Program-made: the position numbers and the translations under genes
Notes under the pieces: generated by a model
The model's database searches: none
Told to the model about the DNA's origin: nothing
Seen by the model: the letters and a program-made list of their open reading frames with translations, nothing else
Part shown: one piece after another, positions 116 through 3,875 of the stretch
How the letters are laid out: the number at the start of each line of letters is the position of its first letter
Numbering within the stretch: the stretch's first letter is position 1
Virus record (IMG/VR): IMGVR_UViG_3300029498_000035
Length of the DNA stretch: 5,719 nucleotides
Direction: 5' to 3' (one strand)
Origin: a virus
Taxonomy: Duplodnaviria; Heunggongvirae; Uroviricota; Caudoviricetes

Positions 116-146
116 ATAAAAAAGCCACCAGTTAACTACTGATGGC
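116..146 (-). terminator. putative intrinsic terminator after the DUF1737-like ORF region
   Basis: Plus 124-146 gccaccag/ttaacta/ctgatggc forms an 8-bp stem (one G.U pair) with a 7-nt loop. It is preceded on plus by the A-tract 116-123, which is a U-tract following the hairpin on the minus-strand RNA. Confidence 0.45.
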
Positions 147-389
147 TCTGATAACTCATGCAAGCGTCTCAGACGATCCACTGACACTACCGGTGAGTTT
201 AACGATACCTTCCATTTGACTGGCTCACTTTTTATGATGATGCCGGTGTATTTATCTCCAGCACCAGACTTTCTATCTCAACGCCATACGTTGCATTTTT
301 GGTAATATCCGTCAGCGTCAGTGCATTTAGTCCCACTGCCAGACCGTCTTTTATGGCCTGGAATGCCGGGCCAGTACGATGACGTAGTA

Positions 390-578
390 TCACTCCGGCT
401 CAGTTGCACCACTGACCACCACATCACCTTCTGCTGCAATCGCCTGCATCAGGGTATAAGGGGTTATGGCCACCGGACTACCAAACGGCTGCCAGCCCTC
501 TTTCAGTTTATGTGTCAGCTTTTCCGCAAGATCTGACGGCGCCGCCGCCCTGACAACATCATAGTGTTTAAATGCCAT
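390..578 (-). CDS. small prophage protein, tentatively DUF1737-like
   Basis: ORF-track minus ORF 390..593. I place the start at the second ATG (578..576) because it is preceded by an SD-like GGTGGAAAG, while the first ATG (593) has none. The product is 62 aa starting MAFKHYDVVRAA. The family resemblance is recalled from memory and the position fits genes found near lysis cassettes in lambdoid prophages; not searched. Confidence 0.5.
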   Translation of the reverse strand: MAFKHYDVVRAAAPSDLAEKLTHKLKEGWQPFGSPVAITPYTLMQAIAAEGDVVVSGATEPE

Positions 579-838
579 GGTTCTTTCCACCATCTGAAAA
601 ATAATTCTTTAAAATACCAGACATGTAACACAGAAAAAACACAAAACCATACCTTAAATAGAAACCTGATCATCAAGCAGATATGCATGGATAAACTACA
701 AGACGAGATATAAACCACCCTGCATTTAAATAAACAATAAACAACATCAGAAAAATAATTCTGCTCTATGGTTTATATTCAAAAATATCATTTATACTTT
801 TCAGAACATCACCAGCAAGGCATAAACAAGGAAGCTAA

Positions 839-1174
839 ATGAAGTGGATTGTGATTGATACAGTTATCCAGCCATCATGCGGAATATCTTTTTCAGTCAT
901 ATGGAGTAAAGTAAAATTAATAATCTGGTATCAATCGGATGCTTTCTTACCTCCTGAAAGTATATTTACACTGACTCACACAGGTATCATGCTCAATAAC
1001 AAAGTGCTACCTGTAACCATTTACAACGTAGTACCATTCAATAAAACATTCTGGAATTTAATCAAAAACAGCCAGGAATGCCCTACAAATACAGATAACG
1101 TATTGAATGAATGCTTTAATAACCGTTGCACTCTGCAAATATGTTCTTATGGACTAAAACAACAAAGTCCATAA
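839..1174 (+). CDS. hypothetical protein, AT-rich orphan ORF (moron candidate)
   Basis: ORF-track plus ORF of 111 aa. A strong Shine-Dalgarno AAGGAAG at 828-834 sits 4-6 nt before the ATG. A TATACT -10-like hexamer lies at 793-798. The ORF sits in a low-GC island (sampled at about 25% GC upstream of the ORF, estimated about 33% within it) against roughly 50% GC flanks. An open frame this long is unexpected by chance in AT-rich DNA. No family recognised. Confidence 0.5.
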
Positions 1175-1200
1175 GGAGTTTACTCACATCTGACAAAATC

Positions 1201-1229
1201 AATATAAACAGCCCCTCCGGAGAGGGGCT
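1201..1229 (-). terminator. intrinsic terminator hairpin (copy A of repeat), possibly bidirectional
   Basis: agcccctc-cgga-gaggggct (1210-1229) is an 8-bp GC-rich stem with a 4-nt loop. The plus A/T-rich run 1201-1209 gives uguuuauauu after the hairpin on the minus RNA. The hairpin also sits 36 nt after the stop of the plus-strand ORF 839-1174. Confidence 0.55.
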
Positions 1230-1363
1230 GGAGAGTGGCGCTATGTGCCATTGCATGGTGCCGGGTGCCTCCCGGTGAATTCAGTACCAGCACCTGAATC
1301 CGCGATTATCCCATATACCTACTCGCTGATTACCCCTCCGCACAGGGGGATTCACCATGCGAA
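1201..1363 (-). ncRNA. candidate small RNA (copy A), model only
   Basis: A conserved -35-like TTGTCT (minus; plus 1390-1395) and an A-rich -10-like region lie upstream. A 5'/3' inverted repeat caccatgc (1353-1360) and gcatggtg (1253-1260) would close the RNA. It ends at the terminator 1201-1229. No ORF is conserved between the two copies. Confidence 0.3.
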
Positions 1364-1420
1364 ATTTTTTAACAAACTTCCCGCCGGCCAGACAATAATC
1401 GCCAGCCTGAATTATGAGCA
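1210..1420. repeat. copy A of a ~210-bp diverged direct repeat (structured element)
   Basis: Shares with copy B the identical 20-nt hairpin, the block gcatggtgcc(g/a)gg(t/g)gcctcccggt(g/a)aattcag, a cccc-N8-gggg hairpin, the identical 18-mer gggggattcaccatgcga, and the block ttttaacaaa..ccagacaat(a/c)atc. Intervening blocks are only about 50% identical. Confidence 0.75.
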
Positions 1421-1455
1421 ACGTGGCATTTTACGGGAAAACTGTTTTCTGCAGT

Positions 1456-1478
1456 AAAAAGGCCCGCCGGAGCGAGCC
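1456..1478 (-). terminator. putative intrinsic terminator
   Basis: Plus ggcccgcc-gg-agcgagcc (1461-1478). On the minus RNA this reads GGCUCGCU-CC-GGCGGGCC with all 8 positions paired, two of them G.U wobbles that pair only in the minus-strand RNA. It is followed by UUUUUAC (plus A-tract 1456-1460). Confidence 0.45.
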
Positions 1479-1663
1479 TGGAAGGATAGCGGTCATGTGA
1501 TGCCGGTTTCCCGGTAACTCAGCATCGGTATCTGAGTCAACGTTTTCTCTACTGGGTCATTTCCGATACGTTCCGCCTTCCGGCAGACTTTCATCACGTC
1601 AGAAAATATAGCACCCTGAGTAACAGGACAGTACTCAGAATTCAGGAAACTGTGACACATCCT

Positions 1664-2283: not shown

Positions 2284-2292
2284 GGGAGCAGA

Positions 2293-2321
2293 ATAATAAT
2301 GGTGCGTAATTAATTCTGCAA
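2293..2321 (-). promoter_or_regulatory. candidate sigma70 promoter for the tRNA cluster
   Basis: On the minus strand, TTGCAG (plus 2316-2321), a 17-bp spacer and TATTAT (plus 2293-2298) end about 10 nt upstream of the tRNA-Ile 5' end. This sits in the 49-bp gap after the methyltransferase stop. Confidence 0.35.
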
Positions 2322-2332
2322 TCTCATCCGTT

Positions 2333-3382
2333 TCAAACGATTAAATCCTGAACTTCCCTGACTGTCTGCTCAAAACGTCCGGTCTCCAGCTCAACACCAA
2401 TCGCACGACGCCCCAGTGCCATCGCCGCTTTTACCGTTGAACCCGACCCCATGAAAAAATCCGCAACCAGATCACCAGGACGACTACTTGCGCTGATTAT
2501 CTGCTGCAGCATTTCTGCCGGTTTTTCGCACGGATGTTTCCCTGGATAGTACTGCACCGGTTTATACGTCCACACATCGGTGTACGGCACCTGCACCGTC
2601 ACACCGAAATACCTCCGCAAATTTTTATATTCACTCAGCAGTTCCGTATACTGCCGGTTCAGCTCACTGTATGTGCTGACCAGTTGGTAATGGGACTTTT
2701 CCAGTTCTCCCCGCTGATGTTTCTCTTCTGCCACCCGGGCAAACAGCGACTGTAATTTCAGATAATCGCTTTCGTTCGGTAGCTGCCACTGACTGGCACT
2801 GAACCAGTGCGACACCATGTTTTTCTTTCCTGTGGCATCTGCAATCTGTTTTGCCGTTATCCCCAGGGCCGCGCGCGCATCACGAAAGTAAGAAATCAGC
2901 GGGGCCATCACATGCTGTTTCAGTGCACTGCCCTTCGCCGCATACCCGGCATCTTTCGGACGATACGGCCCCTGATAATGTTCCGCGAACAGAATGCGCT
3001 CTGTGGCGGGGAAATACGCCCGCAGGCTTTCCTTGTTGCATCCGTTCCAGCGTCCGGACGGCTTCGCCCAGATAATATGGTTCAGCACACTGAAGCGTTC
3101 ACGCATCATGATTTCGATATCAGATGCCAGGCGATGACCACAGAACAGGTAAAGACTTCCGGCAGGTTTCAGCACCCGCCAGAACTGCGCCAGACACTGG
3201 TCCAGCCACTTCAGGTAATCATCGTCGCCCTTCCACTGGTTATCCCAGCCCTCAGGCTTCACTTTAAAGTACGGCGGGTCCGTGACTATCAGGTCAACAG
3301 AATTTTCGGGTAACGACCGGATAAATTCCAGGCAGTCGGCGTTGATTAACTCACAACTGGATATTTTTACAGTATTAAGCAT
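2333..3382 (-). CDS. orphan DNA amino-methyltransferase, beta class (N6-adenine or N4-cytosine), phage-type
   Basis: ORF of 349 aa. Motif IV DPPY (LIVTDPPYF) is near the N-terminus and the AdoMet-binding motif I FxGSGST (DFFMGSGSTVKAA) near the C-terminus, which is the beta-class permutation. No restriction-endonuclease-like partner is in the window. The start ATG 3382..3380 has only a weak SD. Confidence 0.9.
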   Translation of the reverse strand: MLNTVKISSCELINADCLEFIRSLPENSVDLIVTDPPYFKVKPEGWDNQWKGDDDYLKWLDQCLAQFWRVLKPAGSLYLFCGHRLASDIEIMMRERFSVLNHIIWAKPSGRWNGCNKESLRAYFPATERILFAEHYQGPYRPKDAGYAAKGSALKQHVMAPLISYFRDARAALGITAKQIADATGKKNMVSHWFSASQWQLPNESDYLKLQSLFARVAEEKHQRGELEKSHYQLVSTYSELNRQYTELLSEYKNLRRYFGVTVQVPYTDVWTYKPVQYYPGKHPCEKPAEMLQQIISASSRPGDLVADFFMGSGSTVKAAMALGRRAIGVELETGRFEQTVREVQDLIV

Positions 3383-3475
3383 GGATCATTAAGCCTGTCT
3401 CTGATAGGCTCATTCTGCTTTTGCGCAAAGCAGTGGGCCTGAGGTTTGCTTGTGAACCCAACGCATGAGCAGATG

Positions 3476-3504
3476 GCTGGTGGGTGCCCCTAACACCCAC
3501 CAGC
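3476..3504. repeat. perfect 11-bp inverted repeat carrying Chi octamers on both strands
   Basis: gctggtgggtg (3476-3486), spacer cccctaa, cacccaccagc (3494-3504). GCTGGTGG lies on plus at 3476-3483 and its complement ccaccagc at 3497-3504. No U-tract follows on either strand, so it is not a terminator. It lies between the small HTH ORF and the methyltransferase. Confidence 0.55.
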
Positions 3505-3520
3505 CGCCCATTTACCACAA

Positions 3521-3546
3521 ATAAAAAAGCCTTCACTGCGGAAGGC
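3521..3546 (-). terminator. intrinsic terminator downstream of the small HTH ORF
   Basis: gccttc-actgcg-gaaggc (3529-3546) is a 6-bp stem. The plus A-tract 3523-3528 gives UUUUUUAUUUG after the hairpin on the minus RNA. The ORF stop TGA (3533-3535) lies inside the stem. Confidence 0.6.
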
Positions 3547-3730
3547 GTCTGTAACAACCGAACTGATAGTCTGCCAGACCCGCCATAACCAGCTGGGTCA
3601 GTATTAACTGGCAGCGTTCGCGTGAAAGGTAAGTATTCTGCGCTATCTCCCCGACTGTCGCCGGTTCGGTAACGCTTAATTCATTAAACACCACTCTGGC
3701 GGTTTCTGTCATATCCTGCTGTTTTAGCAT
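3533..3730 (-). CDS. small winged-helix DNA-binding protein, possibly PapI/FaeA-like
   Basis: ORF-track ORF 3533..3817 begins with GTG. I prefer the internal ATG 3730..3728, which is preceded by AAGGGA 7 nt upstream, giving 65 aa. The HTH-like core TVGEIAQNTYLSRERCQLILTQLVMAGL resembles PapI/FaeA-type regulators as recalled; not searched. Confidence 0.45.
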   Translation of the reverse strand: MLKQQDMTETARVVFNELSVTEPATVGEIAQNTYLSRERCQLILTQLVMAGLADYQFGCYRRLPQ

Positions 3731-3852
3731 GTCTTTTTCCCTTTTCCGGTTAACGTGACACACCAATAACTCTTGTCGAAAAAGCCAGCAAGCTGAAAGA
3801 CAGGTATTCACCGCCACCAGCGCGTTTACTGTACTGACGCGATTTCAGTCAT

Positions 3853-3875
3853 AAAAAACCCGCCAGGCGGCGGGG
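3853..3875 (-). terminator. tR'-like intrinsic terminator about 65 nt downstream of the late promoter
   Basis: On the minus RNA, CCCGCC-GCCU-GGCGGG (plus 3859-3874) is followed by UUUUUUAUGAC (plus A-tract 3853-3858). Confidence 0.65.

Follow-up and report, generated by a model that had tools for sequence, protein, structure and literature searches.

The window, a stretch of 5,719 nt from a Caudoviricetes virus record (IMGVR_UViG_3300029498_000035), carried a Q antiterminator gene, a predicted late promoter and a series of small units on the minus strand, which is the late strand of a lambda-like prophage, as well as an iraM-like gene and the end of an insertion element on the plus strand. 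It was found at 80% coverage or more in ~700 complete E. coli genomes. Its features are listed below in the order of late transcription.

3957-4778, minus: Q antiterminator gene, 273 aa (Pfam PF03589, E 2e-49; phrog_127)
3924-3951, minus: predicted late promoter pR' (-35 TTGATT at 3946-3951, 16-nt spacer, TGg-extended -10 TAAATT at 3924-3929)
3909-3917, minus: AACGATGGG, predicted start (+1 = 3917) and sigma-dependent pause element
3850-3917, minus: predicted pR' leader RNA, ~66 nt (5' hairpin, 16-nt A/U-rich linker, terminator)
3851-3876, minus: T1, putative tR', first late terminator
3533-3730, minus: ORF65, 65 aa (phrog_331, weak winged-helix match)
3521-3548, minus: T2, overlapping the ORF65 stop codon
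3507-3519: candidate promoter TGTGGTAAAT
2333-3382, minus: DNA methyltransferase gene (PF01555, E 3.5e-44)
2293-2321: candidate tRNA promoter TTGCAG-17-TATTAT
2122-2283, minus: two tRNA genes, CAT (Met/Ile2) and TCG (Arg)
1946-2062, minus: DUF3927/TciB-like ORF, 38 aa
1664-1857, minus: STnc100 copy 1 (Rfam RF02076, 138.8 bits); its 3' hairpin and U tract are T3 (1664-1692)
1453-1628, minus: degenerate STnc100-like middle copy (30.0 bits, E 0.001); its 3' hairpin is T4 (1452-1479)
1200-1388, minus: STnc100 copy 3 (RF02076, 132.5 bits); its 3' hairpin is T5 (1200-1230)
839-1174, plus: iraM-like anti-adaptor gene (NCBIfam NF007393, 156 bits)
232-593, minus: nanS-p sialate esterase remnants (DUF1737 N-terminus at 390-593, C-terminal piece at 232-393)
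113-149, minus: T6, after the deleted esterase
1-92, plus: end of an IS66-family (ISCro1-like) element, with target duplication GGATAACGG

Late promoter, leader RNA and transcription units

The Q protein belonged to the Q-lambda family, matching Q-lambda (PDB 7UBM, E 2e-38) in two stretches and also PDB 4MO1, and possessed an extra DnaJ-type zinc-finger segment. The predicted pR' aligned with that of lambda (GGGTAAATTTGACTCAACGATGGG), and in TAAATT-N6-AACGATGGG both the element and its distance from the -10 were identical to lambda, in which a sigma-dependent pause element after pR' is required for Q loading. The sequence-only reading had assigned the hairpins to the late-operon strand downstream of Q, in agreement with the family of the upstream gene and with the position of T1, at +44 to +66 from the lambda-like predicted start. 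The predicted leader RNA folded at -21.9 kcal/mol (z-score of -2.9) and had no match in the Rfam search. By analogy with lambda, T1 should be the tR' of a lambda-type late promoter and is predicted to delimit this ~66-nt leader RNA. In a Stx phage, pR' is constitutive and its transcript, terminated at tR', gives rise to an sRNA (PMC7547250).

T3 was the first terminator 3' of the methylase, tRNA and DUF3927 genes, and a tRNA promoter has been reported in a Stx2 phage at the position corresponding to the candidate found here (PMC7547250). Downstream, STnc100 copies 1 and 3 were full-length RF02076 matches, both above the curated gathering score of 47 bits. The middle copy fell below this score and is treated, from its sequence, as a degenerate or chimeric STnc100 relative and not as a member; its T4 hairpin resembled a terminator that follows the tRNAs in a Stx2a phage. 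Copy 3 was convergent with the iraM-like gene, which lay within an A+T-rich island (GC 33-39%), and AsxR/AgvB partners convergent with STnc100 gave no Rfam match at E <= 1. Among 56 aligned variants of the region upstream of STnc100, CTCACAATTCAG and TTGAC(A/T) were conserved, without canonical -35/-10 spacing, and CAyAAT represents a candidate promoter motif upstream of the copies.

The suggestion that the segments between hairpins yield discrete small transcripts in the lysogen was supported in part, through the sRNA family that ends at T3-T5, as expression of STnc100/EcOnc27 and its binding by Hfq are documented in lysogens (PMC5331693, PMC4104026, PMC12711010). For T1, lambda 6S RNA and StxS (PMC7547250) provide the analogy from which such a transcript is expected.

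Six hairpin and U-tract sites on the late strand

All six minus-strand hairpin and U-tract signals proposed from the sequence alone were present, within 1-4 nt of the positions first given for them. Their final coordinates, late-strand RNA and free energies (ViennaRNA) are as follows.

T1, minus: hairpin 3859-3874, U tract 3851-3858; RNA CCCGCC-GCCU-GGCGGG UUUUUUAU; -12.6 kcal/mol
T2, minus: hairpin 3529-3546, U tract 3521-3528; RNA GCCUUC-CGCAGU-GAAGGC UUUUUUAU; -8.9 kcal/mol
T3, minus: hairpin 1673-1692, U tract 1664-1672; RNA UUUUCUGUG; -17.3 kcal/mol
T4, minus: hairpin 1460-1479, U tract 1452-1459; RNA UUUUUACU; -15.6 kcal/mol
T5, minus: hairpin 1209-1230, U tract 1200-1208; RNA UUUAUAUUG; -20.3 kcal/mol
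T6, minus: hairpin 122-149, U tract 113-121; RNA UUUUUUAUU; -17.0 kcal/mol

The hairpins were compact and G+C-rich, and folding upheld their stability, with free energies of -8.9 to -20.3 kcal/mol and z-scores of -2.4 to -5.6 (the latter for T6). A consensus terminator scan of the window returned 17 terminator-like sites, compared to 5.3 ± 2.4 in shuffles, and T1-T6 were all within its top seven matches. A strict scan (gap-free stem of 6 or more pairs, loop of 3-8, dG <= -7.5, tail beginning with UUU and at least 5 U in 8) recovered exactly T1-T6 on the minus strand of the window and no site on its plus strand, with a mean of 0.64 sites in 200 dinucleotide shuffles (sd 0.77, maximum 3). All six U tracts thus started with UUU, contained five or more U in 8 positions and were confined to the late strand. 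The G.U pairs thought to favour the minus-strand RNA were confirmed in T4 and T6, whose plus-strand versions were weaker by 6.0 and 5.5 kcal/mol, respectively.

The other consensus-scan matches were rejected as terminators because none passed the strict scan. The match at 5036-5050, within rusA, had a poor tail, and those at 1612-1630 and 1849-1861 were weak stems within STnc100 bodies. The match at 3907-3923 spanned the predicted transcription start, so that its 5' arm would be absent from the RNA.

T1 coincided with a mosaic junction between phages carrying different Q genes. Across 120 viral loci, 23 hairpin variants occurred at this position ahead of the same U tract, some with wholly different stems. 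Such a junction is what might be expected if the signals were chance palindromes or DNA-level sites for protein binding or recombination, but this explanation is extremely improbable given the count of six sites on one strand and none on the other (0.64 expected), the U tract present at each site on the late strand only, the G.U pairs of T4 and T6, and covariation in relatives that preserved RNA pairing, not sequence, with no loss of pairing. Among the six, T2 was the weakest, with a marginal 6-bp stem, and interruptions were seen in the T3 (UUUUCUGUG) and T5 (UUUAUAUUG) U tracts, so that termination efficiencies may be modest.

Conservation and cassette turnover among relatives

The T2 stem was invariant in relatives, one loop variant extending it to 8 bp; as the loop alone varied, covariation was uninformative on its pairing. 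For T6, 94% of cells in the stem were paired across relatives, compensatory changes affected 5 of 10 pairs, and none of 500 shuffles did as well. T6 variants were also rich in U-G pairs that suit the late strand only. Some relatives kept the T6 hairpin with a poor U tract (CCCCUCCUGUUG), and another role for this hairpin is therefore possible. Since the terminator hairpins of sRNAs are known to determine Hfq binding and stability (PMC4104026), and T6 pairing was kept even where the U tract had degenerated, some of the hairpins, chiefly T6, could serve in RNA stability, processing or Hfq binding more than in stopping the polymerase. This appears unlikely, as the T6 stem has 12 bp here and runs into UUUUUUAUU, in the manner of a textbook terminator, and T3-T5 are annotated as terminators in an Rfam sRNA family; the two functions could also coexist. 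Two other identities of T6 were discarded: a PasA or PasC terminator, as PasA/PasC of E2348/69 lie on the strand opposite the late operon, and a dual-start (sdi-like) holin hairpin, as another, small stem-loop (CUUCCG-GAUAA-CGGGAG) precedes the Shine-Dalgarno sequence, downstream of T6.

The lysis genes presumed to lie beyond the window start were found after T6 in near-identical relatives (holin, lysozyme and Rz), with the holin AUG ~41 nt past the T6 hairpin in relative L001. Here, in contrast, the IS66-family element lies directly at that place, past T6 and ahead of the ribosome-binding site of the holin gene, parting the leader from this gene. The locus is uninterrupted in, for example, E. 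coli NCTC86 (NZ_CP019778, 1,562,806-1,569,937).

Cassettes were variable among relatives and included the methylase block, stx2AB, one to three STnc100 copies and the esterase; the ORF65-T2-methylase block (2323-3850) was missing in phage vB_EcoS-640R1. Published work describes the region after pR' as a site of morons, and eight or more Sakai prophages have sRNA genes there (PMC4104026, PMC7873438). The 22 related Q-S leaders, one of them from a Stx2a phage, each contained 4-8 sense terminators versus a mean of 1.3 antisense, and sense terminators reached ~1/kb in the leaders, compared to 0.31/kb beyond S and 0.17/kb upstream. The six hairpins of the window do not amount to a dedicated leader device: T3-T5 are Rfam sRNA terminators, and the others are gene ends of separable insert cassettes.

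As each of T2-T6 ends a recognisable unit, the cassettes are gained and lost among relatives and the site is a moron hotspot (PMC4104026), it is possible, though on balance doubtful, that T1 alone controls late expression, T2-T6 being incidental cassette or sRNA gene ends clustered by insert accumulation, with no selected gating. Against this stand the terminator retained directly before the holin gene across unrelated contexts, with compensatory changes, and a sense-strand density 3-6 times that of the flanking phage regions. The two accounts differ solely in whether insulation is selected. The best explanation, to which we assign a probability of about 0.78, is that T1-T6 are genuine Rho-independent terminators, each the 3' end of its own unit, between pR' and the lysis genes. 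The sequence-only reading was largely right and partly supported, and it is not new: the six-terminator layout is ordinary for the lambda-like phage group and leaves the antitermination picture unchanged.

Proposed mechanism and comparison with known systems

In this model, the six sites would act on late-strand transcription in a lambda-like E. coli prophage: T1 would end constitutive transcription from pR' at ~66 nt, and T2 would close the ORF65 unit. T3 would close STnc100 copy 1 and be the first stop for methylase, tRNA and DUF3927 transcripts, T4 and T5 would close two more STnc100-type sRNA genes, and T6 would close the nanS-p esterase remnant, in relatives ~40 nt ahead of where the holin gene starts. 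The units would be transcribed separately in the lysogen, and the holin gene should receive no transcription. Upon induction, Q would load on RNA polymerase while it pauses at AACGAT, an element immediately past pR', and the modified polymerase would read through T1-T6.

This analysis provides a coordinate-level map of the Q-to-holin leader in a prophage type that is very common in E. coli and whose backbone also bears stx2 in Stx2a phages, and aids the annotation of its transcription units and sRNA genes. Clustered late-strand terminators (~1/kb) help explain the tight Q dependence of toxin and lysis expression. We propose, quite tentatively, that the pR'-T1 leader may be a constitutive Hfq-dependent trans-acting sRNA and, jointly, that the serial terminators may be a selected lysis fail-safe. 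If true, non-Stx prophages would have in the leader RNA an analogue of StxS, and the successive terminators, with a conserved T6 immediately ahead of the holin gene, would form a multiplicative fail-safe against leaky lysis, offering a reason for the clustering of sRNA genes between pR' and the lysis genes that is unexplained in the literature.

The closest known system is lambda pR'-qut-tR' (6S RNA), with which the locus shares a Q-lambda-family gene directly upstream, an identical -10 (TAAATT), 6-nt spacing and AACGATGGG, an intrinsic terminator shortly after, and same-strand lysis genes downstream (here, in relatives). It differs in its leader (~66 nt, compared to 194 nt in lambda), in its Q protein (273 aa with the extra zinc-finger segment, compared to 207 aa), and in the ~3.7 kb of inserted units and five further terminators between tR' and the holin gene. 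The Q-binding stretch from -35 to -10 is also not that of lambda, and Q action at the predicted promoter is therefore an assumption.

StxS, the Hfq-binding sRNA derived from the Stx-phage pR' transcript ended at tR', is likewise a short pR' transcript ending at tR', and the predicted leader resembles it by layout alone (5' hairpin, A/U-rich linker, terminator); StxS is processed from a 258-nt transcript to 74 nt, whereas the leader here is predicted at ~66 nt (PMC7547250). STnc100 (EcOnc27/sRNA103, PasD-related) has its terminal hairpin and U tract on each copy here, and copies 1 and 3 occupy the place that a copy has in Stx2 phages, 75 nt past stx2B, but here there are three in tandem, the middle one sub-threshold with a post-tRNA-like terminator. 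Finally, compared with phage morons (the Juhala/Hendrix concept as cited in PMC4104026), the promoters of the units here are candidates and one unit (iraM) lies on the opposite strand; as in morons, these are discrete units with their own terminators just after pR', variably present among relatives.

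Composition of the late-regulatory region

The minus-strand genes of the window make up the part of a lambda-like prophage of E. coli that regulates late expression.

Gene order across the window, from the Q side toward the window start
DUF968/YdfU, then RusA, then the late-gene antiterminator Q (3957-4778; 273 aa, PF03589); minus; first three in order
65-aa ORF (ORF65, 3533-3730), then DNA methyltransferase (methylase, 2333-3382); minus; after Q
Two tRNA genes (2122-2283), then a 38-aa DUF3927 ORF; minus; after the methyltransferase
Three tandem elements of the STnc100 type (Rfam RF02076; 1664-1857, 1453-1628 and 1200-1388); minus; after the DUF3927 ORF
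iraM-like gene; plus; after the STnc100 elements
Two nanS-p sialate esterase remnants (232-593); minus; last

The whole window was carried by 719 complete E. coli genome records (98% identity, at least 80% coverage), and in its E. coli relatives a class II holin, lysozyme and Rz come directly next. The backbone is common to Stx2a phages, where stx2AB is flanked by the tRNAs and an STnc100 copy. The nearest solved relative of Q was Q-lambda (7UBM, E 2e-38); the window's protein has 273 aa compared with 207 aa in lambda Q, its extra ~70 aa, which contain DnaJ-type CxxCxGxG zinc-finger repeats, separating two parts that align to Q-lambda. Within 2122-2283, the CAT-anticodon tRNA was called Met by ARAGORN and is annotated as tRNA-Ile in RefSeq records of relatives, while tRNA-Arg(TCG) had a low score (44.9 bits) and non-standard pairs in its acceptor stem. 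An A+T-rich island (501-1250, 33-39% GC) contains the opposite-strand iraM-like gene and a 21-nt direct repeat (588-608 and 742-762). This gene is convergent with the third STnc100 copy and reads into the palindrome of terminator T5, which has no U tract on the iraM strand.

Detection and stability of six late-strand terminators

The six hairpin and U-tract signals (T1-T6, numbered from Q toward the window start) that the sequence-only reading had placed on the minus strand all proved real by consensus scan, hairpin energies and a strict terminator scan. The consensus scan ranked them within its seven best matches, among 17 terminator-like sites in total (5.3 ± 2.4 in shuffles). The strict scan returned T1-T6 and no others on the minus strand and zero sites on the plus strand of the window; 200 dinucleotide shuffles gave a mean of 0.64 and a maximum of 3. 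Hairpin folding energies were -12.6 (T1), -8.9 (T2, the weakest), -17.3 (T3), -15.6 (T4), -20.3 (T5) and -17.0 kcal/mol (T6), each well below those of the site's own shuffles. As had been proposed, G.U pairing favours the minus strand, on which T4 and T6 are more stable by 5.5-6 kcal/mol. The U tracts of T3 and T5 are interrupted. A possible weak seventh terminator past the DUF3927 ORF (1901-1926, minus; GGGUAUCAGUUACCC, then GUUGAAAUUUUUAAAU) was not passed by the strict scan.

Identity and conservation of the individual sites

T1 (3851-3876) is tR', the first late terminator. The minus-strand sequence just past the Q stop codon is TTGATT-16 nt-(TGg)TAAATT-TGCTCT-AACGATGGG, matching lambda pR' exactly in its -10, its spacing and its AACGATGGG start/pause element. 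The predicted transcript from this late promoter would start at 3917 and end ~66 nt on; its fold joins a 5' hairpin to the terminator through an A/U-rich linker of 16 nt. A mosaic junction coincides with T1: DNA from 3874 downward is common to many phages with unrelated Q genes, and the tR' hairpin forms a recombination boundary at which unrelated Q/pR' modules join the same 3' arm, U tract and downstream sequence. With the conserved U tract as anchor, 120 viral contigs gave 23 different hairpins upstream of it, some with wholly different stems (e.g. GGGAC/GUCCC). At this position the hairpin is conserved but its sequence is not.

The stop codon of ORF65 and T2 (3521-3548) overlap, and the T2 stem is invariant among relatives, being longer in one loop variant. 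The ORF65-T2-methylase block (2323-3850) is absent as a unit from phage vB_EcoS-640R1. Directly past T2 (3475-3519), the extended -10 of pR', TGTGGTAAAT, occurs a second time, and the methylase 5' leader then contains a perfect hairpin of 11 bp (GGCUGGUGGGU...ACCCACCAGCC); together they could be a candidate methylase promoter and structured leader. The plus strand of 3475-3519 gave a weak Rfam P26 match (E 0.085).

Half of the sites, T3-T5, belong to a curated sRNA family, which the sequence-only reading had missed. Two full-length STnc100 copies (138.8 and 132.5 bits; gathering score 47) have T3 and T5 as their terminal hairpins, and T4 ends a degenerate, sub-threshold middle copy (30 bits) that may be a chimera. 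T3 is also the first terminator reached by methylase, tRNA and DUF3927 transcripts. EDL933 expresses 11 copies of STnc100, a family of prophage sRNAs, and a Northern blot confirmed one of them (PMC5331693). Downstream of stx2B, the family's copy overlaps EcOnc27/sRNA103, an Hfq-bound sRNA (PMC12711010, PMC7873438), and PasD is a relative of the family (bioRxiv 10.64898/2026.05.13.724894). The T4 hairpin (AGGCUCGCUCCGGCGGGCCU, 1452-1479) resembles the post-tRNA terminator GGCUCGCUUUUGCGGGCC-U7 of Stx2a phages, located between the last tRNA and stx2A, ahead of the latter.

T6 (113-149) follows the esterase remnant, and an esterase gene was found upstream of it in 84 of 88 related loci. Across 20 variants, 94% of stem cells were paired and 5 of 10 pairs had changes on both sides, a value equalled by none of 500 shuffles; the U tract is poor in some of the variants. 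The esterase is internally deleted (junction about 359-374), which leaves an N-terminal DUF1737 part of 67 aa and 53 aa of the C-terminus, a layout shared with vB_EcoS-640R1. Opposite to the late operon, a weak plus-strand hairpin followed by UUUUUAUGAUG (192-237) abuts the esterase stop codon; the equivalent place in E2348/69 is occupied by terminators of the antisense sRNAs PasC and PasA, to which this hairpin has no sequence similarity.

Lysis genes had been presumed beyond the window start, but what lies just outside it is an IS element: positions 1-92 belong to the terminal part of an ISCro1-like element of the IS66 family, which has the target duplication GGATAACGG and was inserted 16-20 nt ahead of the holin ribosome-binding site. 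In an uninterrupted relative, ~41 nt separate the T6 hairpin from the holin AUG. The element (within 1-110) interrupts a small stem-loop, CUUCCG-GAUAA-CGGGAG, in its 3' arm; uninterrupted relatives have this stem-loop downstream of T6 and ahead of the holin Shine-Dalgarno sequence. Effects of the insertion on holin expression or on the choice of start site are possible.

Terminator density and late-gene control

The comparison covered 22 related leaders, one of them from a Stx2a phage, each spanning 3.9-6.7 kb between T1 and the holin gene. Strict terminators on the late strand numbered 4-8 per leader (mean 5.2; five in the Stx2a phage), against a mean of 1.3 on the opposite strand. Five of these 22 leaders had the three-copy STnc100 array.

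Strict sense-strand terminators per kb
Window's own leader: 1.6
22 related Q-S leaders: about 1.0
Downstream of the holin start: 0.31
Early-right operon upstream of pR': 0.17

Given these counts and densities, the window is a typical example. In the simplest reading, each of T1-T6 would terminate its own unit, the six would jointly silence the holin gene in the lysogen, and Q would override them all. The analysis demonstrates the hairpins, their strand bias, the family assignments, the conservation and the layout, while use of the promoters, efficiency of termination and read-through by Q are inferred. The earlier reading was broadly right, although the arrangement it described was already known. 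What is new is limited to T2 and T6, previously undescribed but ordinary terminators, and to the density figures for Q-S leaders. The stretch past pR' is an established hotspot where inserted units and Hfq sRNA genes collect (PMC4104026), and in lambda and Stx phages constitutive firing of pR' is halted at tR' until Q-modified polymerase ignores terminators (PMC7547250, PMC6266700).
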